A DNA stretch of 64,000 nt, from NCBI GenBank assembly GCA_963743305.1, contig CAVUPH010000014.1:256001-320000 (forward strand). The letters are read 5' to 3'. Of this stretch, positions 1,369 through 26,543 are shown in pieces; positions within the stretch are counted from its first letter, which is position 1, and every line of letters starts with the position of its first letter. The position numbers and the translations under genes are program-made. Source of the stretch: an uncultured delta proteobacterium. Its GTDB lineage: Bacteria > Desulfobacterota > RBG-13-43-22. A model generated the notes under the pieces. That model did no database searches. It saw only the letters and a program-made list of their open reading frames with translations, and was not told the origin of the DNA.

Positions 1369-1512
1369 AGAGAATTCTACTATAATTGAGGCCCGCCCGG
1401 TACAAAGAGAAGAAGTCCCTCAGGCCATAGACTCTTCACCGCGGTGTGAAAAACCATTTCTCCGAAATCCAGGCGGCCCCAAAGGCTTGGGTTTGGACTG
1501 CTTTACTATATT

Positions 1513-3132
1513 ATGCGTCATCTCTTCAAAGGCTGCAATAACCATCTGCTCATCTTATTGAGTTATTCCCTTTTGACTTTTCTCTTTACCTATCCTTTAC
1601 CTGTTCAAATGGGAACATCCCTTTATGGGCATGAATTGGTCGGCTTCAATGTCGACCCCTATGCCGAGATGGAACGTTTCCAAAGGGTCAAACAAACCTT
1701 TCTGGCCACCGGAAAGCTTTGGTTTTCTCCTTTTATCCACCCCCTGGTGGCAGTTCCCGGAGCACTCTTAACCGAGGCTTTTGATGAGGTTGTTGCTTTT
1801 AATCTATTACTCCTAATCAGTTTTCCTCTGGCCGGGTTTTTTACTTACCTCCTCGCGTATCAGCTTACTCAAAAACCCTTCCCTTCCTTTTTTGCCGGCC
1901 TGGTTTATTCCTTTTCCCCTTACCACTGGGTCCATGCCTATTATCATTTGAGCCTTTCTCAGATCCAGTGGTTCCCCCTCTATTTGTTGAGCCTTATTCT
2001 GTTTTCCCAAAAAAAGTCTTTTCCCCGAGGCCTCCTGGTTATGGGTTCTCTGCTCGTCCTGGTCTTGACCAACTACTATTATGCCCTCTTCGGCCTGCTC
2101 CTGACCATTCTGTTTATCCTCTATCACGGGGGGTTCCTTTATGTGAACCGGGGTCAGAAGGTTTTCCCGCACGCTTCTTTCTGGGTCCTGCTGGGAGTCT
2201 TGACTTTGGCCGGCCTGCTATTCTCATTATATTTCTATAATCATCTGGTGCTGATTTACCATAACCTGCCCTCTTTCAGCGCCCGTTACCCGGATCTCTT
2301 TCGGTACGGCTCCCGACCCTGGGGATTTATTGTCCCACCCCAAGACAACCCCTTCTTAGGCTGGATTGGAAAGAACTACATCCATTCCCGACTGGAAGGG
2401 GGGACTTTGGTCGAGCATACCTTGTACCTGGGGTTGGTCCCCCTGCTCTTGTCCATTCTGGCAGTATATAGCGGGCTCCGGGGAAAACCAAAGCCCTTCG
2501 CTCAAAGTCCTTCCTATTATCTCGGCTTTTTCGGAATCCTATTCATCTTGGCCCTTATTTTTTCCCGGCCTCCGCTGACCACCGTTGGGGGGTTGAAGAT
2601 TCCCCTGCCGGCCTACTACCTTTACCCGGTCTTCCCCATGTTCCGTTCCTATGCCCGCTTCGGCCTTTTGGCCTATCTGGCCCTGGCCCTTCTGGCGGCG
2701 GGCGGCCTCACCCTGCTCCAGACCCGTTGGCCCAAAAACTATTGGATTCCGGCTTTAGCCTTTCTTTTGCTGGTCATCGAATATGCCAATCTTCCCCCCT
2801 GGCGGTACCGGCCCATCCTCCCCACCCAAGCCCATCGGTATCTTGCTGAAAAGGTTAGGGATGTGAAAGTGGTCGATTATTTTCCACAAAAATTTTATGA
2901 CCTCCCGCCCATCCGCAAGCGGATGAACAACCATTTGCTGACGGGCCGGGAAATGGCGGCCTTTGCCCTGGTCAATCTTTCTCGGCCTGACCTCTTCCCA
3001 AGACTACGCCTCCAAGGAGTATCTTATGCCATCTTCCCTCCCGATCGCCTCGGACTTTTAGGTGAGAAAGGGCCCCCTCCGGTGATGCGTTTCCCGGATT
3101 CGGTTCTCTTCCGAATCGATCCCTTCCCTTAA
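1513..3132 (+). CDS. Polytopic membrane protein, YfhO/GT-C glycosyltransferase-like
   Basis: 539 aa with many TM helices. Motifs AGLVYSFSPYH, LYLG and FRSYARF resemble the GT-C/YfhO-like family. Confidence 0.6.
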   Translation: MRHLFKGCNNHLLILLSYSLLTFLFTYPLPVQMGTSLYGHELVGFNVDPYAEMERFQRVKQTFLATGKLWFSPFIHPLVAVPGALLTEAFDEVVAFNLLLLISFPLAGFFTYLLAYQLTQKPFPSFFAGLVYSFSPYHWVHAYYHLSLSQIQWFPLYLLSLILFSQKKSFPRGLLVMGSLLVLVLTNYYYALFGLLLTILFILYHGGFLYVNRGQKVFPHASFWVLLGVLTLAGLLFSLYFYNHLVLIYHNLPSFSARYPDLFRYGSRPWGFIVPPQDNPFLGWIGKNYIHSRLEGGTLVEHTLYLGLVPLLLSILAVYSGLRGKPKPFAQSPSYYLGFFGILFILALIFSRPPLTTVGGLKIPLPAYYLYPVFPMFRSYARFGLLAYLALALLAAGGLTLLQTRWPKNYWIPALAFLLLVIEYANLPPWRYRPILPTQAHRYLAEKVRDVKVVDYFPQKFYDLPPIRKRMNNHLLTGREMAAFALVNLSRPDLFPRLRLQGVSYAIFPPDRLGLLGEKGPPPVMRFPDSVLFRIDPFP

Positions 3133-3154
3133 CCAATATGATCGGATAAATCAC

Positions 3155-3184
3155 TTGACAGCCTTAAGCGGATCTTCCTACTAT
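3155..3184 (+). promoter_or_regulatory. Sigma70-type promoter upstream of the RRE operon
   Basis: TTGACA (3155-3160), 18-nt spacer, TACTAT (3179-3184). Confidence 0.55.
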
Positions 3185-3189
3185 CATTT

Positions 3190-3335
3190 GAACCTTGTTC
3201 GCTTGGCAGTTTAGGCTCGGGACTCGAGGTCTAGGTGCCTTTGGATAGCCCTCTCGCCGAGACCCGTCGGCCAGACCAAATAGGCGGGGGAACCCACCCA
3301 AAAAGGCGAAGCGTCATTTTATAATGCAGAGGTAA
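3190..3335 (+). ncRNA. Putative structured RNA or 5' leader, family unassigned
   Basis: Follows the promoter. Nested pairings by eye: TTCGCTT 3198-3204 with AGGCGAA 3304-3310; GGC with GCC; CGGG 3218-3221 with CCCG 3263-3266; CTCG 3223-3226 with CGAG 3258-3261. Confidence 0.25.
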
Positions 3336-3357
3336 CCCCATTTCTCAGAGACCCTTC

Positions 3358-4503
3358 ATGCCCGACTATCGACCCAGGATGGATCTGGAATCCGTACTCT
3401 TGGACGACGAATTAATGATCTTTGATCCGGTCCGCGACGAAACCCATATCTTAAACGAAACCGCTGCCGAGATCTGGCGGTTGCTGACCGAGAAAAAATC
3501 GTTGCCCGAAATATTGAATCATTTTTTCGAACACCATGGGACTGAGGACAAGGAAGACCTCCGGAAAATTCTTCAAAGTACCTTGATCCGATTTAATCAA
3601 AAAGGTCTCCTGATCCCAACAGGCCCCTCCAAGTCAAAACAAGAGAAAGACGCTGAACTTGAGGACGCCTTGTCCCGGCAGGAGCGACTGCTGTCCGAAA
3701 CCCCCGACGATCCCCTGGTACTCGGCAACCTGGGGGTTCTCTATATTCAATCGGGTCGCTGGCCGGAGGCCGAAGCGTTACTGGTTCGGGCCCGGGGGCT
3801 GGAACCGACTAATGCAGCCTTGGCCTTTAACCTGGCATCCCTTTGGCATCGCCTGGATCGGTCCGCGGAGGCCTGGGAAATACTGGAAAGAGTCGACTCC
3901 CAGCATCCCGGCAATGTTCACCTCCTGAGCCTTTCCGGAAAGATATTGACGGCCTTGCGCCGTTTGGACAGCGCCGAAGATAAATTCCTTCAAGCCTTGG
4001 CCATTAATCCGGAATTACTCAATCTGTACAATGAACTGGCTTTGGTCTACCTCCTGCTGGACCAACCGGAGGCGGCGGAAGCCCAACTCACGGCAGCCCT
4101 CAAACGATCCCAAGTTTATTCGGATACTTTCCGGAACCTGGGAAACCTCCGTTTGAAAGAAAACAATCCGAAGGCCGCGGAAGGGTATTTCCGGCAGGCA
4201 CTGGAATTAGATCCCGGAGACGTTTTGGCCCGGTATGCATTGGCCTGGATTTATTTCCAGCGGAGGGAGTTCGGCCAAGCGGTTCAGGAAGCGGAGTCCT
4301 GTCTTCAGCAAAGTCCGACCTGGCTGCTTCCCTATGAATTCTTGGTTCAGGTTTATCAAACCCGGGGAGATCGGTTCCAGGCCCTGTTGGTCTATAGCCG
4401 CGTCCGTAGGGCCGTCCCGGATTTCAGTCGGCAAGAGTTCCCTTTCCTGGCGACCCTGGAGCGGGCAGTCCTTAAAAATACCCCTGAGAATAAAAGGCGT
4501 TAA
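3358..4503 (+). CDS. PqqD-family RiPP recognition element fused to TPR repeats
   Basis: N-terminal LDDELMIFDPVRDETHILNETAAEIWRLL...FNQKGLL is a PqqD/RRE signature. The remainder is TPR repeats (LGNLGVLY, AEGYFRQALELDP). Confidence 0.85.
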   Translation: MPDYRPRMDLESVLLDDELMIFDPVRDETHILNETAAEIWRLLTEKKSLPEILNHFFEHHGTEDKEDLRKILQSTLIRFNQKGLLIPTGPSKSKQEKDAELEDALSRQERLLSETPDDPLVLGNLGVLYIQSGRWPEAEALLVRARGLEPTNAALAFNLASLWHRLDRSAEAWEILERVDSQHPGNVHLLSLSGKILTALRRLDSAEDKFLQALAINPELLNLYNELALVYLLLDQPEAAEAQLTAALKRSQVYSDTFRNLGNLRLKENNPKAAEGYFRQALELDPGDVLARYALAWIYFQRREFGQAVQEAESCLQQSPTWLLPYEFLVQVYQTRGDRFQALLVYSRVRRAVPDFSRQEFPFLATLERAVLKNTPENKRR

Positions 4504-5773
4504 TGAAACCGGCTGTTGGTTTTATCCGCCACTTGTTTCAGTATATTGCCCAAGCGGATCGGATTGAGTCCTTTCAAGAATTTCTCGGGCGTCCAGAAAA
4601 TGGGCTCTCCTGGGGGGAGCTTTTCCATCTCCTTCAAATGCAGGGCCTCGCACCTTTCACCTATTACTCCCTGCGTGCCCCCGAGTGGCAGTCCCTACTC
4701 CCGGAAACTTTCCTGGCCCGATTAAAAAATACTTTTCGGGAAACCAGCCTCCAAAATTTCTTCCTTCAGCGGGAATTGAAGCGCCTCAACGAACATTTTG
4801 ATCTAGCCCGCTTGATCGTGGTCCCCCTTAAGGGGGCCAGTCTCATCAACCGGCTCTATCCGCTGCCCGGTCTTCGCCCCATGCAGGATATCGACCTGCT
4901 GATTCATGACCGGGACTGGGAAAAGGTCAAGCGGGTTCTGCTTACCGCCGGATATCAACCCCTCTCCGATCTGCCCGAAAAATGGGTTAAGGGTTTTCAT
5001 TTTCATGCCGCCTTTATCCTGCCGGAGCGTAACTTGGTGGTGGAAGTCCACTGGAACTTGACGGATGAACATCTCCTGCCGTTTGAATCAATGGAAGACC
5101 CTCTGGGACCGGGTCTATTTTTCTGAATCCACCAGATCCTGGTTTCTGGCTGACCGGGATCAGTTTCTTTACCAATGCCTGCACCTCTATAAGCACGGGA
5201 CCTTTAATGCCGTGCTGGCTCGGCACCCGATCGCTATGATCTCCTTTTCGAACCGCTAAGCGGAAACCGCCTGATCTGGTTTCTGGATCTCTGGCTGCTG
5301 ATGAAGGGTGAACCCCATCCGGACCTGGAAGGATTGATCCGGGAGGCGCAACACTGGCAAGTGGGACCGGCCCTCCATTCCGGCCTGGTCCTGACTCAAA
5401 ACTTATTCCAGCCCCTTCCTCAGTGGACTTGGCCTTTCGAGCAACCGCTGCCCGCTATCCCACGGGCAAAGTATTTCCTGCTGGCCCGTTTAGCGGACGG
5501 GAGCGGCCAGAGAAAAACGCTGGACCCTGGACCCTGCTTAAACGGCTGCAATCCCTCGATCAGCGCCTCCATGTCCGCCCTGTCCGGGCCCTGGATATGA
5601 TTGACCGCCTCCTTCCTTCATCGGACCAGCGACGGGAGTGGTCGGTGCGGCATTCCAGACGTTGGGTCCCTTTTTTATACCTGTTCGCTTTTCTCCAAGG
5701 ATTGGGTTTTGCTTTTTCCCGGGCCTCAATCCTGATTAAAATGAAAAGATACCGGGGCCTGAAAAAAACATGA
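4503..5773 (+). CDS. Nucleotidyltransferase, NTP_transf_5-like (frameshifted across ORFs 4503-5126, 5065-5259, 5301-5600, 5423-5773)
   Basis: VPLKGASL...YP.PGLRPMQDIDLLI, VEVHWNL, LYQCLHLYKH and LIWFLDLWLL occur in successive frames. Confidence 0.8.
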
Positions 5774-6951
5774 CCCTCTCCGATCAGCTTGCCAGGGAAA
5801 AATGGGGGGCACGGGCGGGCTATCGCCGGATTTATCTTTTTTTTGGCCACCCCATCGAGTTTTTAACCGACTCCGAGCCCGATTTCAGCGACTTTGATAC
5901 CATCTACCGCCGGTTCCAAAGGGGTCCGGAACACCATTCCTTTAAAGAGGAGATAAATCCTCTTTTTCTTTTGCGTGAGCGGAAGCATTCCGGCTATCTG
6001 CTCTATTTGAATAATCGGCTCTTCCAGGTCCCTGCTCCAACTAATCGGTTAGAGCTGTTTATGTATTTGCTCAATTACCTTTTGGATCGGACAGAGAATT
6101 TCTTTATGGTACACGGGGCGGCCCTGGCGGATCTGGACCATGGACTGATTATCGCCGCCCCTTCCGGTAGGGGAAAGTCCACCTTGACCTTGGAACTCCT
6201 AACCCGGGGAAAAAAATTTCTCTCCGACGAACTGGCCTTGATTTCCGTCCAGGACGGAGGGATCCAGGCCTTTCCCCGCGCCCTGGCCGTCAGCCGGGAA
6301 AATCTGAACAACGTTTTGTCCCGGAGAGGCGAAAGATTCCGTAAATTTTTGCCGGCCCTGGGGCGGGAAGGCCGGATGATGTTCGATGTGGAGGATCTTT
6401 TCCCCGGCCAGGTGGCCACGCACTGCCAACTCCGGAATATAGTTTTTGTCGAGCCCGCGACCCTGACCAAATCGGTAGCAAGCGGCATCCCCCTGGAGAT
6501 CGGGTTCACCGCCCTTCCCGAGGGCCTGTGCCGGACAATGATGGATATTCCGGCAATAAAAAAAGTGGATCAAATCCAGGCATTGCCCTACCCCATCCTT
6601 CGCCTGACCTGTCAAGCAGAAACAGCCCTGATGGCCCAGATCCAGGAGGTAGCGGCGACGCAGGGGGTGGGGATCTGCAGTTATTACCCCGAGGGGAAGG
6701 AAGGGATCGATTACCTGGCCACCCCGGACTTGATTAAATTGAAACCCTCGTCCGGGATCACCACCCTGCTCCGCTATGTCTTAAACATCCCGGCGCTCAC
6801 CCGTTCCTTCAGCGATTCGTCCGGCGGACGTCAGCGCCTCCTGTTTCGATTGGCCCAGACCACCCGAGGCGTTCAGTTTTATCGGCTCACACCGGGAATT
6901 CTTTCCCAAATGACGGACTTGATCGATGGAATTGCCCGGAGGGCATCTTAA
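5770..6951 (+). CDS. HPr-kinase-related P-loop kinase
   Basis: VHGAAL...APSGRGKSTL...FLSDELA...AFPR motif set of HprK-related kinases. ATGA overlap with the upstream gene. Confidence 0.8.
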   Translation: MTLSDQLAREKWGARAGYRRIYLFFGHPIEFLTDSEPDFSDFDTIYRRFQRGPEHHSFKEEINPLFLLRERKHSGYLLYLNNRLFQVPAPTNRLELFMYLLNYLLDRTENFFMVHGAALADLDHGLIIAAPSGRGKSTLTLELLTRGKKFLSDELALISVQDGGIQAFPRALAVSRENLNNVLSRRGERFRKFLPALGREGRMMFDVEDLFPGQVATHCQLRNIVFVEPATLTKSVASGIPLEIGFTALPEGLCRTMMDIPAIKKVDQIQALPYPILRLTCQAETALMAQIQEVAATQGVGICSYYPEGKEGIDYLATPDLIKLKPSSGITTLLRYVLNIPALTRSFSDSSGGRQRLLFRLAQTTRGVQFYRLTPGILSQMTDLIDGIARRAS

Positions 6952-6985
6952 TGGACGGTAATGGAGGATTGTTCGCGAGGTTATC

Positions 6986-7576
6986 ATGATTGACTTCGCC
7001 GGAATCAGGGAGGAATCGGTTTCCGCCCTCCTGGCCGATTATCAGGTCCAGGGCCGGGAACAATGGTTTCCGATCCGGGGTCGAAGCATGAGACCCTTAT
7101 TACGGGAGGGGGATGAAATCCAGGTCCGTTTCTGCTTCCCGGAAAACATTCGGAAAGGGGACCTGGCCGTCTTTTGGGAAGGAAGGGTTTTGAAAGCCCA
7201 CCGGATCCTGGATATCTTCAAAACATCCCAAGACATCCTCTTTCTGGAAAAAGGAGACAGCAACCCTACCGCCAGCTATATTCCTTCTTCCCGGATCAAG
7301 GGCCTGGTTCAGGCCGTTCGGAAACCATGGGGGGTGGTTGGGTTGGATCGCGCCTGTTGGCGCTGGTGGAATCGGATGGTGTCCAGATCCGGGTATGGTT
7401 TTATCCGTGCCTTTGCTTTCTTCCCTTCCCCAGAAAAAGGAAAAACCGGTTCTCCCAGCGCTTACGGGCCATTCTGGGGATACCGGTCCTGGATCTATTT
7501 GCTCTTGTTCTTTCCTCTTTTCGAAGAAAGAATTCGAGCCTTTTTCATTTCTCGTTTTAACAGGGCGGGGAGATGA
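6986..7576 (+). CDS. S24/S26-family peptidase (signal peptidase I-like, Ser-His type)
   Basis: GRSMRPLLREGD (Ser), AHRI (His), EKGDSN. Confidence 0.85.
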   Translation: MIDFAGIREESVSALLADYQVQGREQWFPIRGRSMRPLLREGDEIQVRFCFPENIRKGDLAVFWEGRVLKAHRILDIFKTSQDILFLEKGDSNPTASYIPSSRIKGLVQAVRKPWGVVGLDRACWRWWNRMVSRSGYGFIRAFAFFPSPEKGKTGSPSAYGPFWGYRSWIYLLLFFPLFEERIRAFFISRFNRAGR

Positions 7577-8018
7577 CACAGGAGCGGTGATTGCTGGAAT
7601 TCCCATCCTGATCCTGGATGAAAAAGTCAATAGTCACCGGTATCAGCTCCGGGGCCTCCAGTATTTCAACGCATTCCCCGGATTTCCCGCTCACACATGT
7701 CTGGTCGGTCAGCGGAGCGCAAGTCGTTGAAACACCGACCCGGCCGGTTTTGGCCGGGTAAATATAGGCATAGCATTTTTTTCCCCCCACCATGTCCCCG
7801 GCAATTTTCTGCCAGTCAAACTTCACCTGTATACGGGGCAGCGTTTCCGGGCATTCATTGTTGAAAGGGACTTCGGGGTTGCAGGTGAAGGTCGTCAGTT
7901 GAGGCGGGCTGTTGGTCGGAGGTCCATACTGGGTAATAATCGGGCCGACCAAATGGTCCAAGGTTGCCTGGTTATAGCTTTGAATCTCCGGTTTCAAAAA
8001 TACTTTCTTGGATTTCAT
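7557..8018 (-). CDS. Putative RiPP-type precursor: lasso-like leader plus Cys-rich core
   Basis: Starts MKSKKVFLKPEIQSY, similar to the lasso/RRE-binding [Y/F/W]xxPxL motif. 8 Cys in the rest. RBS-like GAGGAAG upstream. Convergent with the RRE operon. Confidence 0.6.
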   Translation of the reverse strand: MKSKKVFLKPEIQSYNQATLDHLVGPIITQYGPPTNSPPQLTTFTCNPEVPFNNECPETLPRIQVKFDWQKIAGDMVGGKKCYAYIYPAKTGRVGVSTTCAPLTDQTCVSGKSGECVEILEAPELIPVTIDFFIQDQDGNSSNHRSCVISPPC

Positions 8019-8177
8019 TCTTTCTTCCTCAACGATAAAATCACCAAAGGATCTGGTTTAGGGCATTGTGACTCAACTTATTAAATATATGCTCTAAAAT
8101 CAACCGGTTGTCAATAGAAAAAACCAGCGCCCTCCCCCCATTTCAAAAAATCTCGACGATTGCAGCGGACTCCAGAT

Positions 8178-8462
8178 CTAATGGAATTTCTGTTCTCCCT
8201 GGTCGACCACCTTTATCGGGCCATATTGCCGTTCATATTTTTCCAGGTTATCCTTCAGGGCATTGATAATCCTTCTTAAATTGCTGGGGCTGACCATAAT
8301 GCGAGAGACTAAAAACGTCCCGCTGGGGGAGTTCAAGAGCCAGTCTAGGATAAACTCCTCCGGGCTGTGGGAAGCGATCAAGGAATTGCTGTAACGGCCG
8401 CGCATCATTTCGTCGCCGGTATTGATTTGGATCTGCTGAGGGGGGTTGTTCGGGTTGGTCAT
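8178..8462 (-). CDS. DUF3467-family protein
   Basis: GRYSN...HSPEEFILDW...VSRIMVSP...YERQYGPI. Start moved to ATG 8462, preceded by AAGGAGG. Confidence 0.85.
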   Translation of the reverse strand: MTNPNNPPQQIQINTGDEMMRGRYSNSLIASHSPEEFILDWLLNSPSGTFLVSRIMVSPSNLRRIINALKDNLEKYERQYGPIKVVDQGEQKFH

Positions 8463-8608
8463 GGTGGCCTCCTTAATATAACCACTAAATTTTGTTAGCA
8501 TATGCTTTTATTACCTGATAAAAAAGAAAAAACGTTTATCCACCCTTCTTACCTGCGGTGAGGTCCTCGGTCTTTTCCGCGGCTATCGCCGATGAGCTTA
8601 TCTTAACC

Positions 8609-9499
8609 ATGCGACTCCGGCACCTTGTCGATTACCTGAAGTTGTTACGAATTCATCATTATGTCAAGAATGCTTTTATCTTTCTGCCGCTTTTTTTTGC
8701 CGGTGAATTTTTGTTGGTAGACTCCCTTATTTTAAATTTGCGCGCTTTTTTTGTCTTTTCTCTCGTTGCCAGCTCTATTTACATTTTTAACGACCTAAAG
8801 GATCTTCAGGAAGATCGCGAACATCCGACAAAACGACTGAGACCTCTGGCCAGCGGAGTTATTTCTCAATCGGCGGCCTGCCTTACCATGGCACTTTTGA
8901 TCAGCTTAGGGTTGGGTCTTTCCGCCTACTGGTTTCATTTTGATTTTCTGGCTTTAATTGTCTTTTATTTGATCATCAATATGGGTTACTCCCTAAAGTT
9001 GAAACATGTGCCCCTAGTGGATATAACGATCATCGCCTTCGGTTTCGTTATCAGACTTTTCGTCGGTTCAGTAACGGCCAAAGTGCCCTTGACCTTCTGG
9101 ATCATCACCCTGACCTTTCTACTCGCCTTGTTTCTCGGTTTCGCCAAAAGAAGGGATGATATCCTGATTTATAACCGCAGCCACAAGAAAACAAGAAAGA
9201 GCTTAGACGGGTATAATCTGGAATTTGTAAACGCAGGAATGGTGGTGGTTGCCGGAACAATGATCGTTTCCTATTTTATGTATACCCTATCGCCGCAGAC
9301 GATCTCAAAATTGGGCACAGATAAGCTCTATCTGACAACCCTATTCGTTATCCTAGGTACGCTAAGGTATCTCCAAAAAAGCTTCGTTGAAGAAGAGAGT
9401 GGATCCCCGACAAAGATATTACTGAAGGACTTTTTTTTGCAGACCACGATTTTCCTGTGGTTATTCTCCTTTACGGTAATCCTTTATCTGAGGCGGTAG
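8609..9499 (+). CDS. UbiA-family prenyltransferase, decaprenyl-phosphate phosphoribosyltransferase-like
   Basis: LRIHHYVKNAFIF, NDLKDLQEDREHPTKRLRPLASG, YSLKLKH...D, KRRDD. Confidence 0.85.
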   Translation: MRLRHLVDYLKLLRIHHYVKNAFIFLPLFFAGEFLLVDSLILNLRAFFVFSLVASSIYIFNDLKDLQEDREHPTKRLRPLASGVISQSAACLTMALLISLGLGLSAYWFHFDFLALIVFYLIINMGYSLKLKHVPLVDITIIAFGFVIRLFVGSVTAKVPLTFWIITLTFLLALFLGFAKRRDDILIYNRSHKKTRKSLDGYNLEFVNAGMVVVAGTMIVSYFMYTLSPQTISKLGTDKLYLTTLFVILGTLRYLQKSFVEEESGSPTKILLKDFFLQTTIFLWLFSFTVILYLRR

Positions 9500-9501
9500 G
9501 A

Positions 9502-10593
9502 ATGGCAAAATCGGTGGTAGCGGTCATCAAGAGTACGCCAGGTCAGGTCCTTTCAGATATCGGAGAACTGATGGATCAGGCCGCCTTCCGCAGTTTACTG
9601 TTGAAGGAGGTCGTCACCATTTTGAAGGACAATATTTCATGGCATTTCCCTTTTCTGAGCGCCAATACCACGCCTTGGCAGCTTGAGGGGGTCATCAGGG
9701 CGCTAAAAAAAGCAGGCTACGAGGAGGTCGTTGCTGTCCACAATAATACGGTTGTTACCAATCCCTATAAAGGCGGGACGTTGAACAGGCTTGGCCCGGT
9801 GTATCGCCGCTATGGAATCAAGGAACTCTACAATTTTCTACCCGCGGATACAAAATGGGTAACCTACCGGCCCAAGACAAAAATGAAGATTCTGGACAAG
9901 CTCTATCCCGAGGGCATCCGTATACCCGACTATTTCATCGGCAAAAACATCATCCACCTTCCTACCGTCAAGACCCACATTTATACCACAACCACGGGCG
10001 CCATGAAAAATGCTTTCGGGGGTCTTTTAAATACAAAAAGGCACTACACCCATAGCTGGATCCACGAGACTCTCGTCGATCTGCTGGCCATTCAGAAGGA
10101 GATCCACACCGGCATATTCGCCGTCATGGATGGAACAATCTGCGGCAACGGTCCGGGTCCTCGGACGATGATCCCCGTCCAGAAGGATTATCTTCTGGCC
10201 AGCGGCGACAGCGTGGCCATTGATGCTGTGGCCGCAAAAATGATGGGTTTTGACCCCATGGGCATTCCCTATATTCGCCTGGCTCACGAAGCGGGTTTGG
10301 GTTGCGGAAAGCCCGAGGAGATTGAAGTGGTCGGAGAGGATGTTTCCCGAGTAAATTTCGGCTTTTCCGTCGGAGACAATATGGCCAGCAAGGTAGGAAA
10401 TTTGTTTTGGTTCGGGGCACTAAAGTCTGTTCAGAAATCCTTTTTCCGGACACCCCTGGTGTATGCCTTCATTTTCGGCTCCTTCCTCTACCATGACTAC
10501 CTGTGGTGGCCGTTCAAGGGCAAACAGATCCAGAAAGGGACGGCCAAAGGGACGAGCTGGGGCAAACTTTTTGGTTCTTACGCCGGCGAATAG
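9502..10593 (+). CDS. DUF362 domain protein
   Basis: LKDNISWH, LPTVKTH...TGAMKNAFG, GNGP, DSVAIDAVAAKMMGFDP. Confidence 0.85.
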   Translation: MAKSVVAVIKSTPGQVLSDIGELMDQAAFRSLLLKEVVTILKDNISWHFPFLSANTTPWQLEGVIRALKKAGYEEVVAVHNNTVVTNPYKGGTLNRLGPVYRRYGIKELYNFLPADTKWVTYRPKTKMKILDKLYPEGIRIPDYFIGKNIIHLPTVKTHIYTTTTGAMKNAFGGLLNTKRHYTHSWIHETLVDLLAIQKEIHTGIFAVMDGTICGNGPGPRTMIPVQKDYLLASGDSVAIDAVAAKMMGFDPMGIPYIRLAHEAGLGCGKPEEIEVVGEDVSRVNFGFSVGDNMASKVGNLFWFGALKSVQKSFFRTPLVYAFIFGSFLYHDYLWWPFKGKQIQKGTAKGTSWGKLFGSYAGE

Positions 10594-10855: not shown

Positions 10856-13800
10856 ATGAACCTAAAAAATTCACAACCTGAAAATAAAGGGGTGGTCAAG
10901 CGCTGGATTCCCCGAAAACCGGACGGCCAAAGACAACGGCTACGGCAACCCCGGGTTATACTAGCAGTAGTCGCGTTTCTTCTCTTAAGCCTTCCTTACC
11001 TGGCGGGGGCCACCACGACCATCAACGAACAGTTCAGTCCGGACGTGATCAATCAGGGCGATGCGTCTCTCTATACCATTTCGATCACTAACGATGATAC
11101 GATTAATCTCACCAGTGCCATGGTGACGGTCTTCCTCGACAATACCACAGCCGCCCCCAACACCTCGGGCGGTCACATAACCATCGCCAGCGGGACGGTC
11201 GTCGACAATACCTGCGGTTTTTCTGTGGACAGTGCGGGTGCCGGAACGAGCAAGATCGTGCTGACCGGCGGAACGATTCCTGCGGGCTCGCCGGCCACTC
11301 CCTCGGTCTGCACCTTCTCCCTGGAGGTCACCTCCGTCACATTAAGCACATACCATGCGGTCATCCCGGCTAACACGACCCCGGATGCCACTACTTCCGG
11401 GTATGCGGCCACGGGGAATTCCATTATCGTCCATAACACGACATCCGCCGACATCACCCTGCAAGTGAACGCCCTCTCAGCGCCCACCGGCAACAAGGCC
11501 TTCTCGCCCTCTCCGGCGGTCGCCGGCGATCCGATCACGCTGACCATTACGGTCAGCAATCCCAATGCCACCAGCACGATGCCGCTGACGACCTTCACCG
11601 ACAGCCTGCCTGCAGGCATGGTCGTGGCCGGCACGCCCGGTGCTTCCGTCAACTGCACCGGAGCGGGGGCCGTCAATGGGGCCTTTGCACCCCTGGCCAA
11701 CGATACCTCGCTCACGCTTACTGGCGGAACGATAGGGCAGGGAGGTGCCTGCACCCTCTCCGTCCAGGTGGTTGTTCCGACCATCTCCGGCACTACCCAG
11801 AGCTTCGACAATAGTCTGGGAAGCGGCGCCATCGGAAATAGCCGCGGTCTTACCAGCCCGGCCTTTAATAGGACCCTGACCGTCAATTCTCCCATCAATG
11901 TGACCAAGAGTTTCGCCACGTCTCCGATACCGGCGGGCCAGCCTTCCCGGATGACGATCACTATTACCAACAACAGTACGGTCAATGCCCTGGACATTAC
12001 GCAATTCAACGACCATCTGACCGGCACCACGCTGAAGGTCCTCAATCCCTCCAGTTCCCCGGTTGCCGGCATTACGCCCAGCGTCACTTGCGACGGCACT
12101 GGATCTGTCAACGGCTCACTCACCTACACCGTGGACACACTGGATTCCACCTTGACCCTCACCAACGCCAAAGCCGGTCCCAAATCCGGCGGCACCGGCA
12201 AGTGCATAATCATCGCTGACCTGACCTCCACGGTGGATGGAGCGCATACCAATACCCTCCCTGCCGACGCAGTAGTCAGCACCGGCGGTTACCACAGCCC
12301 CAGTGCCTCCGATACCCTGACGGTCAACGCCCAATTGACGGTGGATAAGACCGTATCGGTGAACCAGGTGGCTCCCGGACAGTGGACGAGGTTCACGGTC
12401 ACCATTTACAATTGGTCCGGCGCCCCCGTCACGAATCTGAGCTTCCGCGACGACCTGCCCTCAAGCGGCGGGAGCCAGATGGTGCTCGACGGCGGCAATC
12501 CGATCTCTTCTTTAGGTTGTACCGGTGGGACCTGGACAGGGGCTCCCGGCGAGGCGACGCTTCAGTGGAGCAACGGGACGGTAGCGGGCGGCTCCGGCAC
12601 CTCGCCGGGGATCTGCACGATCGTCTTTCAGACCAGGCTGCCTATTTCCACCCCAACGGGACTTACCTTCGGCAACCAGATTCCAGCTTGGGATGGCACC
12701 CATGGTGCAGGGGGGGACGGTCCCGGCGGACCCGTAGTCAACCCGGCATCCAGCCCTGCTGCCAACGTATTGAGTGTCGATGCGGTGGCGATCACCAAGA
12801 CCTTTGCCCCGGCCTCCATCGCCCAGGGCGGAATTTCGACCCTGACCCTAACCATCCGCAACCGGGTGGTAACCGGCGGCCTGAGCAATGTGAACCTAAC
12901 CGACAATTTCCCGGCAGGCATCACGCTGGCCGCCAATCCCGCCGCGACCAATAGCTGTAATGGCACACTCCAAGCATTTCCCGGAGACAGCAAACTGATC
13001 TTGACCGACGGCAGCTTAGCCGCGCGGCCCAACGACGGGCAGGAAACGACCTGCACGATTACCGCGAGGGTTACCGGTACGACTGTTGGGACCTACAATA
13101 ACACTATCTCGGGGGCGACGTATGGCCTGGTGCCGACGACGATACCCGACAGCAATACGGCCACGCTGACCATCGCGACCGGTCTATCCGGCGCCAAGTC
13201 CTTCAACCCGACCAGCGTCACTTCAGGCGGCACCTCGCGGGTCACGATTACCGTGACTAACGGCTCCAACGGCGATCTCACCAATGTGTCGGTGGATGAC
13301 AATACCTTCGGCGCAGGCCTGACCGTGGCTAATCCGGCCAATGCCGCCACGAGCTGTCCGGGCTCTCCGACGATGGTCGCCAACCCGGGGGCAACCCGTG
13401 CGCAGTTGCTGGGCGCTACCCTGGCGGCCGGCGCGAGTTGCGATTTTTCATTCGATGCCGAGACCAGCGGCGCCGGTCCCTGGAGCAACACTATCCCCAG
13501 CGGCAAGATCACGAGCGCCGAGGGCCCGGCCAACACCGCGGCCATCTCAGCAGCACTCAGCGCTGTTTCTACCCAGATCAACATCAACAAGTCTTTCAAC
13601 CCGGTCGTTGTGACCGGCGGCGTCCCCTCCACCCTAACCCTGACTCTGACTAACCCTTCCAATACAACCCTGCACGGCATCGGCTTCACCGATGTATTTC
13701 CGACCGGGATCCAGGTATATTCCGTTCCCGCCGTGACTTCAACCTGCCCCGGCGGAAGGGTCACCGCCATCCCCGGTGACGGCCAAGTCAGCCTCGCCGG

Positions 13801-16800
13801 CGCAACCCTGGCCTCCGGCAGTACCTGTGTCGTTACCCTTCAAACGACTTCGGTCAAATTCCTTAACCTGACCAACAATATACCGGCCGGCGCCATCGAG
13901 AGCTTCGAGGGCTATACGAACCCGCTGTTGGTCTCGGCCACGCTTTCGACCCTGCAGGGACTGGGCGTCATGAAGGCCTTCTCGCCGGCCTATGTGACCC
14001 CTGCTACGGTCACAAAACTCAAGATGTGGCTGGTCAGCACCTTTGACCCCAACGCCCCGACCCCCCTGACCCTTACCGGCGTCTCCTATACCGATACCCT
14101 TCCCGCGAATGTTTTTGTATCGGCTGCGCCGGATGCCACCACCACCTGTCCAGGACCCGGTGGCGTCGGAAGCGCCACCATAACCGCGAATCCAGGAGCT
14201 GCCCTTATCACGGTCTCAGATGCCCACATCGTCCCCGGCGCGGTCTGCGAGATTTCGGTTAATGTCGTAGCTCCCGGCTCCATCGGCACCTACACCAATA
14301 TTATCCCGGCCGATGCCATCACCACCCTCCAGGGACCGACGAACAGCGAACCCGCCACCGCCAGGCTCTATGTAGTCAATCAGCCCACGATCAACAAGGC
14401 CTTTAGTCCCAAGGTGGTATCCGTGGGCGGCACAAGCACATTAACTGTCACCATAAACAACGGCGCGGGCATTCCGCTGACCGGTCTCTCCCTTACCGAT
14501 ACTTTACCGGCGGGACTGGCCATTGCAGGCAATCCGGCCGTGGCCACTACATGCTCCAACGGAAGCGTTACCGCTGATCCCGGCAGTGACGCTCTCTCGC
14601 TCAGCGGCGCCGTCGTCCCGGCAAACGGCTCATGCACCTTTTCTGCCAGGGTTGTGGCCAATTCCCCTGGGGTCTTTATCAATAATATCAACGCCGGGGA
14701 GTTGGTCAACAACGAGGGCCTCACCAATAGCGGTCCGGCCAACGACACCCTGACGGCGCGCCTGACGCCCACGGTGAATAAAACCGTTCAACCCGGTCTC
14801 GATCGCCTCCGGCAGCTCCTCGACCCTGACTATAACGGTCGGCAACAGCAATGGCGGGCCGATTACACTTACCGCGCCTCTGGTCGACGCCCTGCCGGGC
14901 AACGTGGTGGTAGCCGATACGCCCAATGCCAGTACTACCTGCGGTCCGGGTACGCTCTCCGCCAGTCCGGGGGACATTTCCCTCAGCTACGCCGGGGATA
15001 TCCCTGATGGCGGCTGCACAATATCCGTCGACGTGACTTCCAGCGTCTGCGGTGTGCATACCAACAGTATAGCGGCGGGACAACTTCAGACCTCTGTCGG
15101 AAACAACCAGGATCCTGCCTTTGCCGACTTGGGGGCTTGTAGCGCGCTCGTCCCCACAATAAGCAAGTCCTTCAGCCCCGGCACGATCCCGGTGAACGGA
15201 ACCTCTACGCTGACCATAACCCTGGCCAACCCGAATGCCTCGGCCTTGACGCTTTCTTCGGATTTTTCCGACAACCTGCCGGGTACCGTGCGGGTGGCGT
15301 CAACGCCCGCGGCCGGGACCACCTGTCCGAACGGCACCGTTACCGCCGTTGCCGATGCGACCGGCATCACCCTCCAACGCGGCAGCGGCCCCTTCACCCA
15401 GATCCCGGCTTCCGGTAGTTGCACCGTCACCGTTAACGTCACCTCGGCGGCGGAAGGCAGTTATACGAATACCATCCTGGTCGGTGACCTGCAGACCGAC
15501 GGCGGCAGCAACAGCCAGCCGGCAATAGCGTCCCTGGTGGTGCAGGCACCCATCCCGCCGACAGTGGATAAATCCTTTACTCCCAATACGATCAACCCCG
15601 GCGGCCTCTCGACGCTGACCATCTCCTTGGGCAACAGCAATGGCGGATCAATAAATCTGACCGCCAATTTCATTGATACGCTTCCTGCCGGAGTGACCGT
15701 GGCCGCTACGCCGAACATCCGCGGCACCTGTACGATCGGCAGTATCACGGCCGGAGCCGGCACCGGTATTATTTCCTACGCGACAGGCGCGTCCATTCCC
15801 TCCGGCGGTTGTACAATCCTGGTGGATGTGACGGCGACCAGCAATGCGGGTTCACCCTATACCAATACCATCCCGGTCGATGCCTTGCAGACCAGTGCGG
15901 GCAACAATGGCGCCTCGGCAACGGATAGCCTCTTCGTGAACCCGCCCCAGCCGCCGTCGGTCAGCAAGTTCTTCTCGGCGCCAAAATTTCTCTCTGCCGA
16001 CACGGTGACGCTCACCCTCGCCCTGGGCAACGGCAATAGTACTGCTGCCACCTTGACAGCCGATCTCGTCGACACGCTGCCCTCGGGTCTTATTATCGCT
16101 ACGCCCAACGGTTTAGTGACCAACTGCGCCGGTACGGTGCTGGCACCGGCCGGAGGCAGTACCCTGACTTACCAGAGCGGCGGCACTATCCCGGGCAACG
16201 GGGGCTGCGCTATCTCGGTGACCCTCAAAGCGGCGGATGGCTTACCCCATCACCTGTTTACCAACACCATTCCCGCCGGGGCCTTACAGACGAACTTCGG
16301 CGACCAATGCCGTCGCCTTCCACCGCCACCGTCCAGGTCCTGGTCCGGCCGACGGTCGCCAAGACCTTTAACCCTTCGACCATCAAGTACAACCAAAATT
16401 CAACCCTGACTCTCACGCTTGGGCAATATCAACGATGTCCCGATCACGCTGACTCAGGACCTGGTCGATACCCTGCCGGCGAACGTCTTCCTGGCCACGC
16501 CGGCGACCATCGGCGGCACCTGTATTAGCACCAATCCCGGCAAAGTAATCGCCGCCAACGGCGGCGGCACAGTCACCTACCAGAGCGGGGCCACCATACC
16601 CGCGGGCGGTTGCACCATCACGGTCCCCGTGACCTCCACCACCATGGGCGATTACACCAATACCCTCAACGTCGACGATCTCAAGACCGATGCCGGGACC
16701 AACCCCGCGCCGGGCTCGGCGCAACTGATCGTGCTGGCCCCGCCGACGTTGAGCAAGGCCTTCTCCCCGACGTACATCATCGCCGGCGCGCCCTCGACCC

Positions 16801-19800
16801 TGACGCTGACGCTCGGCAATCCGAATACGCACGTTTTGACGCTGCAATCGGCCCTTTCCGACAATCTGCCCGGCATCATTAAAGTAGCGAATCCGCCGTC
16901 CGTCGGCGGCACCTGCCCAGGCGCCGTCACCGCGGTTGCGGGCGCGGGGACCATTACCTACGCCAGTGGGGCGACTATCCCGAGCGGAGGATGCACCATC
17001 ACCGTGAATGTGGCCGGCTCAACAGCCGGCTTCTACACCAACACGATTTCGTCCGGAGGGCTCGTCACCGAGGCAGGAATCAATGCCGCGGCTGCCACAG
17101 ACACGCTTACTGTTGCCTCACCCTCTATGACCAAAGTCGATCACCAGCGTGAGTCCCGGTCCGAATTCGCCTAATGCCACGGTCGGAGATACGGTAACCT
17201 ATTCCATCCAGGTGACCCTCCCGGAGGTGAGCGCCCCGGGGCTGGTCTTGACCGACACGCTTCCGGCGGGATATCAGTATGTCAACGGATCGGTGAGCGT
17301 CGTGTTGGGCTCGTTCAACGGTACGGTGACGCCGACGCCGACGGTGACACCTTCCGGCTTCGCCCACTCGGGGCAGACCGTAACCATCGATTTCGGTGAC
17401 GTTACGGTAAACACCGATGGCAACTCTTCGAATAACACCTTCGGCGTCACCCTCCAGGCATTGGTAATCGATGATTCCGCCAACGCCGCCCTCGCTTCGG
17501 CCCAGACCAAGCCCAATAGCGTCAGCCTGAACTACACCGGGAAGCCGGCGGGTGCGATCTCCGCGTCGGTGAACCAACCAATTCAGGAGCCACGGCTGAC
17601 CATCACCAAGGGCATGGCCCCGGCCAGCCCTGACGCCGGAACTACCGTAACCGTGACCCTGACCGTCAACAACACCGGCACCGCACCGGCCTATGGCGTT
17701 GTCGTCACCGACGACCTCTCCGCCATGACCCCGGAATCGCCCTTCGATCTGGCTACCGTAGCGGAACTTTCCACCCCTGCGGGTTTTACCTACAGTTTTG
17801 CCGCCAATACCGTTTCCTATACCGCCAACGCCTCCCAGACGATTGCCGCGGGGGGCTCCAAGGTGTTTACCTTTACGGCGATCGTAAAAAACACGGTCGT
17901 GACCGGTATTACCTACACCAACAATGTCTCGGTCACCGGCGACGGACAGGACGGGGCGGTAAACCCCCAGCGCGTCACTTCCCAGAACAACAGCGCCACG
18001 CTTTCTTCGGCGGCCTCTTCGGTGAGCAAGGTACTGACCACCACCTCGGAGACTGATACCGGCAACCCCAATGTGGCGGTCGGCGAGGTCGTCACTTGGA
18101 CCGCGACCTTTACCATCCCCGAGGGTGTGACCAAAAATGTGATCTTGGCCGATGTCCTGCCTGCAGGATTGACCTATCTGACCGGCTCGGCCACGCTGCA
18201 GAAGACCACGGCCAGCCTGTTCTGTTCGGATGGCGGGCCAATTGCAGCTGCCATCAATGGCGCCGTCGCCAATACCCCCGTTGCCGTGACCATGAGCGGA
18301 TCGACCGGGGAGATCCAGGTGGCCCTCGGCGACGTGACGAACTCGGCCAATGATCCGGCCAATGAGCAATACATCCTCGTCCTGCAGTCGGTCGTCGAGA
18401 ACAGCGCCGGGAACAACGCCGGCACCGTCCTCACTAACCTGGGAAGGCTTCGCTACGATAACTATACCGGCAACCAGCAGACCGTCACATCGACCAACCA
18501 GAACGTCACCGTCGTGGAACCCGCGATCACCATCAACAAGACTGTGAACCCCGCCGCCGCGGGTGGTGGCGACACCGTTACCTACACCCTCGTAGTAACG
18601 AACACCGGCGGGGCAAACCGCGCGCCGGCCTACGACCTGGTCATTACCGATCTGCTGCCGGCCGATCTGAACACACCGGCCATCGCCTGCCCCGGGGCGG
18701 GTTGCAACGCCGGCGCGACCGGCGCGACCCTGACCGCATCCTTTGGCGGCGAACACCCTGAATGCCACCATCGACCAACTCGATCCTGGTGAAGTGGCAA
18801 CCTTCACCTATACGGCGAAGCTCAATGATTCTGTTGCCGTACGGCAAATCCATTACCAATACCGCTACCTATACGGCTACAAGCCTGCCCGGCACCAACG
18901 GCACAGGCGGGGTGACCCCCGGCACGGCCGGCAGCGGGACGGGAGAAAGGACCGGGACGGGCGGCCTAAACGACCTTGACCGGCTCCGACCCGGCGACGG
19001 TTACCGTCAATACGCCGACAATCTCTAAATCCGTTGTCGGCCTCAAGAGCTACTACGCCATCGGCGAGGCCGCCACCTACCGCGTTACCCTGCCAGTCCC
19101 GGTGGGAACATCCACCAATTTTACCCTAAGCGATACCATCCCGGCGAACCTCGCCTACCAAAGCGGCTCCCTGAATGTTACGCTCCCTACCGGGGCCACA
19201 GCGAGCAACAGTCCGCTGGCCGACACCAACCCCGCCTTCTTTACCCTCGCCGGAAATGTCCTGACGCTGCACTTCGGCACACTCACTGCGCCCACGGCGG
19301 GCAATGTGACGGTCGATTTCAATGCCGTTGTCCAGAATGTGATTGCCTCCCAGGACGGCACGACCTTTACCAATTCCGCCACCCTTGCCTTTGACAACCC
19401 CGCCGGCGGCACGATCACGGTCGGCCCGGTAACGAACAACCAGGTGCGGGTAGGCGAGCCGAACCTTACCCTGGCCAAGGCCATAAGCGCTGGATCGGCC
19501 GGTTCAGACGCCGGCAACACCGTCTCGTGGCGTATCGACCTCCAAAACACCGGCCACACCACGGCCTATCAGGTCAACTGGAGCGATGTGCTGCCGGATG
19601 GTCTGTATCAGATCACCAATGTGGGGCTTTCGATCAGCGGTCAGGTCTACCTGAACGGGACTACGACCGCGCCGGTGGTGGGCGATGCTACGGTGAGCAC
19701 CACCACGCACACCCATGACACCTTAACGCTCAACCCGGTGCAGATCGATACGGGCGCGTCGCTGACCCTCACCTTTGATACCGTCGTAATGGATACGGTC

Positions 19801-25800: not shown

Positions 25801-26543
25801 CTCCTTCTTTGGTCATGGAAAAGCTGGCGGTACTGACCGAGGATTTTAACGGCGACGGGCTGGTGAACCCGGGGGAAGCAATCACCTATATCATTACCCT
25901 GCAGAATATCGGTTCCAGCGCTGCCGAGGATGTCCGTTTAAGCGATCCTTCACCGACCTTGACCAACATGATCTCTGGTTCGGTGACCTCGACTCACGGG
26001 GTAGTCTTATCGGAAAATCCGGTGACGGTCAATATCGGTCAGCTCAACCCCGGGGAGATAGTCATCGTTCGATTCCGGGCACGCATCCGTGCCGACGTAC
26101 CCAACGGCTCCTCCGTGCTGAATACGGCTACGGTTTCTCAGGCCGGGGGCGAACCGCTTCAAGCTCAGCAAACCACCTTGGTTTTAAGCGCTCCGGTAGT
26201 GGTCGGCTCCTTATGCGGTTCCGTTTATAAGGATTGTGACCAGGACGCCACGCGAGATCCACTGGAACGGGGCCTCAGCGGGGTAACCGTTCATTTGTTC
26301 CGGGCCAATGGGACCTGGATCGCCACCGCCACCACCAATTTCCTGGGCGTCTATCGCTTTAACGGTGTGCCCGAGGGAACCTATACGGTTCAGGAGGTGG
26401 TCCCCCAGGGGTATCTCCCTTCTACCCCGAAGGAATTGTCTGTGTCGGTCATCGAAGGGGGAACGTCTACGTCCAGCTTCGGGGTCCAAACCCAGAATAG
26501 TCCCTGCCAAAGAAGAATCTATCTGCCGATCATTGTGAATTAA
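10856..26543 (+). CDS. Giant secreted adhesin-like protein (~5,200 aa): tandem DUF11/isopeptide-type Ig-like domains and a C-terminal SdrD-B-like domain; about 8 frameshifts
   Basis: Signal peptide ...[19 protein letters not shown]. Dozens of K-x-F-x-P...LTITxxN...D-x-LP-x-G...N repeats continue across ORF breaks (e.g. [14 protein letters not shown] near 14786). C-terminal [27 protein letters not shown]...GVYRF...[10 protein letters not shown]. Confidence 0.85.

Follow-up and report, generated by a model that had tools for sequence, protein, structure and literature searches.

A candidate LPP-like leader/RRE/kinase/S26 island outside Bacillota with a predicted immunoglobulin-like protein as putative substrate

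Introduction

The linear polyphosphorylated peptide (LPP) clusters described in 2026 (lppA-K-B-S-D-N of Paenibacillus alginolyticus; Popov et al., Nat Commun 2026, PMC13381572) are the closest described counterpart of a six-gene island that we analyzed in an uncultured delta proteobacterium of the Desulfobacterota. The island lies in a 64,000-nucleotide stretch of contig CAVUPH010000014.1 (assembly GCA_963743305.1, positions 256,001 to 320,000, forward strand), below called the window, and includes a gene for a protein of 153 amino acids (aa) that is convergent to the other five. This protein carries a conserved leader on a core with a predicted immunoglobulin (Ig)-like fold and is probably the substrate, the equivalent of LppA, of a divergent LPP-like maturation island.

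According to the parts of the LPP paper and its supplement used here (PMC13381572), the LPP enzymes include LppS, a SipW/archaeal-type signal peptidase; LppB, a discrete RiPP recognition element (RRE; RiPP, a ribosomally synthesized peptide with post-translational modifications); and LppK, an HprK-like kinase. Further genes encode LppN, a nucleoside triphosphate (NTP) transferase, and LppD, an MsbA-like exporter. The precursors are 35-200 aa long with the leader consensus YxxPxVLxHQxIxFETxxS, of which the YxxP motif joins the RRE as an extra strand on binding, and the RRE-binding motif is given as [Y/W]xxPx[L/V/I/F/A]. LppK adds several phosphates to Ser3 of the core, and LppS (S29, H68, D93) requires LppB and cuts after Thr-1. 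The final products and the biological role of LPPs are stated to be unknown. LPPs are called restricted to Bacillota, and the supplement also lists uncharacterised pairs of a type I signal peptidase (SpI) and an RRE from other phyla, with the precursor entered as 'ND'.

Four of the five core enzyme types of LPP clusters are also encoded in the island, namely a predicted RRE, an HprK-like kinase, a PF14907 transferase and an SpI-type S26 peptidase. As in the island, no lasso cyclase belongs to the LPP clusters in the parts of the description considered. In both cases the precursor combines a conserved aromatic-xx-P-x-aliphatic N-terminus with a variable remainder, and the glycosylation genes associated with LPP clusters have a counterpart in a gene for a predicted glycosyltransferase of the GT-C fold. 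LppS has a Ser/His/Asp catalytic set, and S34, H72 and D91 are the candidate set of the island peptidase by alignment with SEC11C. The two systems also differ. Part 1 of the supplement shows Bacillota LPP precursors with a length of about 40-75 aa and Gly/Pro/Asn-rich tails, whereas the 153-aa protein has a core of about 110-120 aa that is predicted to be folded and contains eight Cys. The RRE is discrete in LPP clusters and fused to TPR repeats in the island. Where LPP clusters have an MsbA-like ATP-binding cassette (ABC) exporter the island has none, and contains the GT-C gene instead. The leader aromatic residue is Tyr in LPPs and Phe or Trp, never Tyr, in the family of the 153-aa protein. 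Finally, LPP hosts are described as Bacillota, in contrast to the host of the island.

Kinase-tailored lasso peptides of the paeninodin/pseudomycoidin kind share with the island an RRE as well as HprK-like kinase and nucleotidyltransferase tailoring genes, as far as they are covered in the same parts of that paper (PMC13381572), and their leader motif is of the same type as the island leader. Lasso peptide cores are about 15-25 aa long, in contrast to the predicted β-sandwich of 110-120 aa found here. The identity of the island as a lasso cluster was rejected because Pfam and NCBIfam searches showed no cyclase and no B2 protease and because the core is predicted to be folded.

Results

The precursor-like gene and its family

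The open reading frame (ORF) of the 153-aa protein is, judged from its pattern of substitutions, a genuine gene under purifying selection, since the ratio of nonsynonymous to synonymous changes (dN/dS) is only 0.07-0.11 in pairwise comparisons (0.093, 0.074 and 0.109 for three pairs among the window, the same-genus genome G001 and the metagenome locus L005). A GAGGA Shine-Dalgarno sequence lies directly upstream of the start codon. A first-pass annotation, made from the window sequence alone, had assigned the gene its own candidate promoter on the basis of the hexamer TTGACA at 8114-8109, upstream of the gene. This hexamer opens a block (8114-8088) that is identical in the window, G001 and L005, with diverging flanks, and to this extent the proposal gained support. 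A sigma-70 scan of 7300-8700 called no site (1.3 expected); the scan passes over the block because CATATA, at a spacing of 17 nt, is a weak -10 element. The 3' ends of the convergent S26 peptidase gene and the 153-aa gene overlap by 20 nt (7557-7576), so that transcription of either gene enters the other.

Relatives of the protein were collected in two ways. A word-indexed search of 5.8 billion proteins gave 14 candidates, of which six were relatives: four at 85-90% identity, one at 51%, and one, P0007, that in the alignment seems to be cut short or to run out of frame past about residue 85. When 1.84 billion cluster representatives were searched exhaustively with HMMER, six proteins reached E <= 1e-3. 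This search added the full-length relatives P0008 and P0009 (51-53% identity) and the most distant full-length relative, P0011 (137 aa, 33% identity), and recovered P0007 again together with the long proteins P0010 and P0012, which showed local matches only. Pfam and NCBIfam searches with the 153-aa protein stayed empty up to E 10, and nothing usable came from the ESM Atlas.

The nine full-length members (alignment A2) indicate a tripartite protein in which a variable linker joins a conserved leader to a core that appears folded. All nine members keep the leader, with the pattern [F/W]xxPE[I/V]...GPxx[T/A]QY, and the N-terminal residues P10, E11, G25, P26, Q30 and Y31 are invariant. Positions 27-29 read [I/V/A]-[I/T]-[T/A] throughout. 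Cys residues occupy positions 46, 56, 82, 100, 108, 116, 147 and 153 of the window protein; seven of them are invariant, and the C-terminal Cys153 is absent from P0011. Among the divergent members, identity is 32-55% in the leader (residues 1-31) and 27-76% in the core (45-153). In the linker (32-44) it is 8-54%, except for one close pair, and indels are present; one wetland relative has an in-frame deletion of 12 nt there. In comparison with P0011 the leader is better kept than the core (42-45% vs 27-28% identity).

The leader does not resemble a known export signal. In the first 45 residues there is no hydrophobic h-region, the highest 10-residue Kyte-Doolittle mean being 1.14, and the corresponding maximum is 1.25-1.74 in four divergent relatives. 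The protein contains no transmembrane-like segment and no twin arginine, and the features of Sec and Tat signals are thus lacking, as the first-pass annotation had noted for Sec. A double-glycine-type leader was considered and dropped, since the leader ends in GP instead of GG and no C39 peptidase is present. A PglB-type N-glycosylation sequon, D138-G-N140-S-S, was dropped as well, as N140 is not conserved in A2.

Other carriers of the leader were sought in the whole genome and in the island. A hidden Markov model (HMM) of the leader, made from A2 and run against 40,076 ORFs of the genome, found the 153-aa ORF only (E 1.6e-20), and the next best hit had an E value of 1.6. A strict regular expression for the leader returned, genome-wide, this ORF and one chance ORF of 37 aa. 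With the pattern proposed in the first-pass annotation, K-x(1,2)-[FYW]-x-K-P-x-[ILV], five starts in four ORFs were found, among which the 153-aa ORF was the only convincing one. Within the island, all further starts with [YWF]xxPx[LVIFAM] lie inside or antisense to larger genes, except for one 36-aa ORF at 3231-3341 on the reverse strand, which falls in an intergenic stretch that does not align to G001. To judge from these searches, no other ORF of the island is a credible carrier of the motif.

Predicted fold of the core

An AlphaFold2 (AF2) model built on a seven-sequence alignment has a mean predicted local distance difference test (pLDDT) score of 71.8 and a predicted template modelling (pTM) score of 0.70. 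Residues 1-15 and 25-35 are below pLDDT 50, with a short helix at 17-24. The core forms nine β-strands between residues 40 and 149, mostly at pLDDT 70-89. Foldseek returned for the core a single match at E <= 1e-3, the Ig-like domain of LacZ, followed by the sandwiches of UNC119, RhoGDI and NPC2. In a VIA-align search of 48,161 chains the best match (Z 8.4) was the fibronectin type III (FN3) domain of the lambda tail tip, with a root-mean-square deviation of 3.0 over 96 residues; 606 chains reached Z >= 5, and nearly all among the matches listed are FN3 or Ig-like. The core is thus modelled as a generic FN3/Ig-like β-sandwich, an assignment at the level of fold with no named family. The alignment, the model and the fold searches agree with the proposal of the first-pass annotation that a leader of about 30 aa precedes a folded, Ig-like core with eight Cys, and the structure prediction suggested there yielded the expected type of sandwich.

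Weak sequence links connect the core to secreted and surface proteins with Ig-like, FN3 or CARDB domains, which resemble it in predicted fold. In the same-genus genome G002 a 145-aa protein (E 1.5e-3) is core-like, has a Sec signal, is free of Cys and lacks the leader. Core-like repeats also occur within a 1,486-aa CARDB protein of genome G161 (E 1.9e-7). Unlike the 153-aa protein, such proteins have a normal signal peptide or are part of giant proteins, and they have no leader of this kind. Homology to three further loci (L006, L007 and L009) was dropped. They share with residues 39-70 a stretch of the type GRIQVRFDWQ at 41-44% identity over 32 residues, which is probably a short strand motif and not a sign of homology. 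L006 and L007 encode large proteins that appear VgrG-like on reading their translations, and L009 is a Chryseobacterium record.

Genes of the island

The features of the island are collected in Table 1. The 539-aa protein was modelled with AF2 from 30 sequences (pLDDT 87.2, pTM 0.89). Foldseek of this model gave 31 matches at E <= 1e-3, and all those listed are GT-C enzymes: STT3/OST, AglB, PglB, ArnT, AftA/AftD, DPY19, ALG12 and Pmt4. In the family alignment D48, in the first loop, is nearly invariant. With a polytopic fold and a conserved acidic residue in the first loop in its model, the protein is a predicted GT-C glycosyltransferase. Labels from the atlas and from precomputed Pfam indicate DUF6311, with YfhO or PMT_2 on two relatives, and our literature search returned no paper on DUF6311. 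GT-C enzymes act at the outer face of the membrane.

The RRE-TPR protein matches PF05402 (E 1.5e-7) and many TPR families. Just seven fusion homologs were found, all at least 72% identical. A phmmer search of residues 1-100, which contain the RRE, against the PDB gave no RRE match (best E 1.4) and hence no sign of kinship with LppB in particular. The nucleotidyltransferase gene differs from its ortholog in G001, which is intact (429 aa, E 1.8e-47), by four single-base indels at 5081, 5225, 5502 and 5528 in the DNA alignment; no further single-base indel occurs in the alignment over 4503-5800. The shifted pieces still encode conserved sequence, and the indels reflect either recent decay or an assembly error. 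In the translation of the kinase gene the P-loop [AG]xxxxGK[ST] was recognized by eye. The HPr-rel-A models of NCBIfam are the top curated models for the kinase (TIGR04352, HprK-related kinase A, 58.4 bits against a cut-off of 200) and, TPR families aside, for the RRE part (TIGR04353, 34.2 bits against 35). Both scores fall short of the curated cut-offs for membership of HPr-rel-A, a system on which our literature search found no paper.

The S26 peptidase, encoded 2.5 kb from the RRE gene, scores 40.1 bits with TIGR02228 (E 3.2e-10, cut-off 51.85), and phmmer against the PDB retrieved SEC11C and SEC11A (E 0.0024-0.011). In the alignment with SEC11C, S34, H72 and D91 of the query fall on the GSMEP, HRV and KGDNN stretches, which we take to be the catalytic motifs of SEC11C. 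Simple hydropathy analysis indicated no N-terminal membrane anchor. Pfam and NCBIfam searches of the island proteins revealed no Asn-synthetase-like cyclase and no transglutaminase-like B2 protease, and by the same searches no ABC transporter is among the six proteins; of ABC genes, the window showed a MacB/FtsX pair at 52-54 kb and no other. The G+C content of the island is 0.528, near the 0.546 of the genome.

Table 1. Positions of the island, its genes and the parts of the 153-aa gene (window coordinates).
Feature	Position	Strand	Remarks
Island, 6.7 kb	1441..8164	.	Five genes on the + strand and the convergent 153-aa gene; between DUF6178 and DUF3467 genes
Predicted GT-C-fold polytopic membrane glycosyltransferase, DUF6311-like, 539 aa	1513..3132	+	About 9 hydrophobic segments
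RRE-TPR protein, 381 aa	3358..4503	+	PqqD-type RRE (residues 18-85) in fusion with TPR repeats spanning about 280 aa
PF14907 nucleotidyltransferase gene	4503..5773	+	Split into three frames; Pfam E 8.1e-35 on first 207 aa
HPr-kinase-like P-loop kinase, 393 aa	5770..6951	+	PF07475 E 2.6e-5, 24.3 bits, cut-off 33.3
S26 peptidase, endoplasmic reticulum/archaeal (SipW/SEC11) type, 196 aa	6986..7576	+	Candidate leader peptidase
Precursor-like gene, 153 aa	7557..8018	-	Uninterrupted translation, ATG start, last residue Cys
Leader, residues 1-29/30	8018-7929		Part of 153-aa gene
Variable linker, residues 31-44	7928-7887		Part of 153-aa gene
Predicted FN3/Ig-like 8-Cys core, residues 45-153	7886-7560		Part of 153-aa gene
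Promoter-like block, 27 nt	8088..8114	-	Opens with TTGACA; upstream of precursor gene

Inheritance and distribution

The six genes are co-inherited as one unit. In G001 they occur in the same order between the same DUF3467 and DUF6178 genes, and among the four genomes of the genus the island is present at this site in two (G000 and G001) and lacking in the other two (G002 and G003), in which the DUF3467 and DUF6178 genes are direct neighbours. G002 aligns to 7-1440 (95.5%) and to 8165-8544 (86.6%) of the window, with 39 bp between these segments. G003 aligns to the flanks as well; in it the segment 1551-7635 is missing, and the remnants 1506-1550 (45 bp) and 7636-7717 (82 bp) abut each other. 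The resulting scar (L062, 1301-1426) joins the start of the GT-C gene to the inside of the 153-aa ORF across a deletion of 6.1 kb. Because of this scar and the clean lack of the island in G002 (39 bp), the genus probably had the island ancestrally and lost it on at least one occasion. Co-inheritance and the scar bear out the link to the neighbouring RRE and S26 genes that the first-pass annotation had drawn, and in both genomes with readable context an RRE locus adjoins the 153-aa gene. Since all nine full-length members also keep the leader, the refuting condition named in that annotation, homologs without the leader or without an RRE locus, did not arise.

The family of the 153-aa protein is narrowly distributed. 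It was found in two of 41 relatives searched and in two of 21 genomes, the full set for both order and class. Three genomes of a 401-genome sample of the phylum gave a match, and two of these matches, in G002 and G161, are remote. A scan of genome contigs matched two of 217 candidate stretches, one being the contig of G001 itself, and a metagenome scan matched three of 160, only one of which (L005, 1.3 kb) holds a true relative. Contigs nearly identical to this stretch occur in soil and sediment habitats. Contig sizes of database homologs were compared as well. The 51% identical precursor P0008 and the 61% identical GT-C protein P0026 each occur on five contigs, the longest of 25,061 bp. For P0054 (cluster of P0006) and the GT-C protein P0031 (53%) the longest contig is in both cases 1,237,239 bp, and for the precursor P0004, the RRE-TPR protein P0016 and the GT-C protein P0021 it is 55,631 bp. 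The equal sizes suggest that precursor, GT-C and RRE-TPR homologs share contigs.

Some further features of the locus were observed. The intergenic segment 3207-3330, between the GT-C and RRE-TPR genes, does not align to G001 and is 74% similar to a segment near the DUF6178 gene of G002 (L061, 269-387). On the wetland contig 108 other letters replace 125 nt at 3207-3330, and the segment may be a small repeat or mobile piece. Outside the island, 8558-10593 encodes a UbiA-family protein and a DUF362 protein. The UbiA gene scores above the cut-off with the decaprenyl-phosphate phosphoribosyltransferase model (249 bits) and has an unusually low G+C content (0.435). A maker of polyprenyl-phospho-sugar beside a GT-C enzyme is suggestive; the UbiA/DUF362 pair is not at this place in G001. 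Further on (10856-26543) there are giant repeat proteins of the DUF7933/DUF11/DUF7507 type with 1,383, 501, 251, 547, 1,828 and 674 aa, which are probably surface proteins. Directly beside the DUF3467 gene, G001 encodes a protein that exceeds 3,086 aa.

HprK-like loci elsewhere in the phylum

Relatives of the kinase at E <= 1e-5 are encoded in 46 of the 401 phylum genomes, the best at about 25% identity. We examined 12 other HprK-like loci from the phylum. Six combine PqqD, HprK-like and S26 genes, three pair the kinase with a nucleotidyltransferase, and three show the kinase alone (L045 and L056, in both of which the kinase is near a contig end, and L046, 15 kb). No relative of the GT-C protein is present at any of the 12 loci.

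The loci with the first combination (L047, L048, L050, L051, L052 and L055) share a recurring set of a PqqD protein, an HprK-like kinase and an S24/S26 peptidase, interspersed with ORFs of some 465 and 1,100 aa, and show no evident precursor. In L047 the two intervening ORFs encode a PqqD-radical SAM/SPASM enzyme and a C25 (gingipain-like) peptidase; the nucleotidyltransferase locus L049 likewise has genes for a radical-SAM/SPASM enzyme and for a C25 peptidase. An EF-P-like N-terminus recurs in L047, L048, L052 and L055, and a class II tRNA-synthetase-like gene is annotated in L047 only. At L054 (8251-8554) tandem ORFs of 47 and 60 aa, or about 35 and 33 aa from an internal Met, have lasso-like YxKPxL leaders. 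They adjoin HprK-like, PF14907, PqqD and transglutaminase-like genes, and no cyclase occurs in the stretch examined. L053 (7896-8225) holds, immediately next to the PqqD gene of an HprK/PF14907/radical-SAM locus, a 109-aa ORF whose RREFIK motif resembles a twin-arginine signal.

Discussion

The island most likely represents an LPP-like leader/RRE/kinase/S26 pathway outside Bacillota, with a predicted folded Ig-like protein as substrate and a coupled GT-C gene. We regard the 153-aa protein as the probable substrate because its leader is conserved and its linker variable, because an RRE-type motif is present at its N-terminus, and because Sec and Tat features are absent. Furthermore, the island encodes four LPP enzyme types, the six genes are co-inherited, and the 153-aa ORF is the sole convincing carrier of the leader that the searches of island and genome returned.

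By analogy with LPP maturation, the PqqD/RRE domain of the RRE-TPR protein would bind the leader motif [F/W]xxPE[I/V] in the cytoplasm as an added β-strand. The HPr-kinase-like enzyme would then phosphorylate the substrate at one residue. Y31, S113, S142 and S146 are candidates by their invariance, and the site is not predictable since no Ser or Thr is conserved near the junction. An intact PF14907 nucleotidyltransferase may add to this phosphate. The SEC11/SipW-type S26 peptidase, presumably soluble, would remove some 29-30 residues from the leader presented by the RRE. A cut between T29 and Q30 seems at least as likely as one between Q30 and Y31, because LppS cuts after Thr-1 (PMC13381572) and because position -1 is then small and position -3 aliphatic, as suits an enzyme of the signal peptidase type. 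The lasso rule of a Thr two residues before the cut, on which the first-pass annotation had relied, is the wrong guide here since by Pfam and NCBIfam the island has neither a B2 protease nor a cyclase. Its suggestion that the leader is a non-Sec export tag found no support either, because [F/W]xxPE[I/V] matches the RRE-binding motif, which works in the cytoplasm. The released FN3/Ig-like core would reach the envelope, where the island GT-C glycosyltransferase could glycosylate it; both the presence of this enzyme and the secretion of relatives of the core speak for a destination outside the cytoplasm. Disulfides among the eight Cys are inferred only.

In its widest form, the proposal would be that a RiPP-type leader/RRE/kinase/signal-peptidase-like pathway was recruited to mature a whole folded protein. 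This would involve a cleavable leader, phosphorylation in the cytoplasm and perhaps nucleotidylation or glycosylation, delivery to the envelope independent of Sec and Tat, and glycosylation by a dedicated GT-C enzyme. We consider this complete scheme possible and, taken as a whole, doubtful.

Several observations weigh against the assignment of the 153-aa protein as an LPP-like substrate. The leader lacks the HQxIxFET part of the LPP consensus, and its stretch between the Pro and the putative cut is seven residues longer than in LPP leaders. Its aromatic residue is Phe, at a position held by Tyr or Trp in LPP and lasso leaders, and a conserved Ser is absent over about 10 residues from the putative cut. 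The scores of the kinase, the RRE and the peptidase each fall short of the curated cut-off of the nearest model, and in this genome the nucleotidyltransferase gene has four frameshifts. An island with no exporter and a protein with no known export signal fit badly with eight Cys forming disulfides. At the 12 other HprK-like loci neither the 153-aa protein nor its leader has a relative (best leader-HMM E 0.08), so that the kinase module is widespread with varied partners and its pairing with the 153-aa protein is rare. Gene context was read in two genomes only, both of one genus, and the shared-contig matches bear on presence on the same contig, not on adjacency.

The lack of an exporter and of an export signal would be explained if the protein were a substrate that is neither cleaved nor exported. 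The N-terminus would then be a docking tag through which the RRE-TPR protein and the kinase phosphorylate a cytoplasmic Ig-like protein, with Cys residues that are reduced or bind a metal and with another role for the S26-like protein. The host is probably an anaerobe, and a fusion to TPR repeats would be apt for scaffolding a folded client. However, the GT-C enzyme should act on the membrane's outer face and the remote relatives of the core are secreted or surface domains. In addition, positions 27-29 are small or aliphatic in all nine members, which fits a signal peptidase site, and the S26-type enzyme is the leader peptidase in LPP clusters, as far as these are covered here (PMC13381572). 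This version therefore seems unlikely to us.

The opposite strand, the conserved promoter-like block and the giant DUF11/DUF7933 surface proteins nearby would also suit a gene that is only a neighbour of the cassette. It would encode a small secreted or surface protein, adhesin-like and with an unrecognized export signal, and the convergent cassette would serve another substrate. The deletion scar and the joint presence or absence, however, tie the 153-aa gene to the cassette, its N-terminus bears an RRE-type motif and is not hydrophobic, and the searches of island and genome found no other candidate substrate; we judge a mere neighbour to be improbable. Some of the same evidence bears on the idea that the protein has an accessory function in immunity, as a carrier or in regulation, with a leader-like docking segment, and that a small peptide from another locus is the actual precursor. 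The genome searches revealed no further ORF with such a leader, and LPP precursors of 35-200 aa are on record in the parts of the LPP paper considered (PMC13381572), which makes an accessory role very improbable.

If the link between the 153-aa protein and the island enzymes holds, the LPP pathway would be extended to another phylum and paired with a confidently modelled folded core and a GT-C glycosyltransferase of the protein type. The protein would be a tractable substrate for studying the products of the kinase and the nucleotidyltransferase, as a folded protein of 12 kDa suits intact-mass spectrometry. Precursors of this kind would escape the length filters used in RiPP mining, and the boundary between RiPP biosynthesis and leader-guided protein modification would be blurred. 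Should the recruitment of the pathway to a whole folded protein prove true, it would provide a leader-guided route for the modification and export of folded proteins in a little-studied lineage outside Bacillota.

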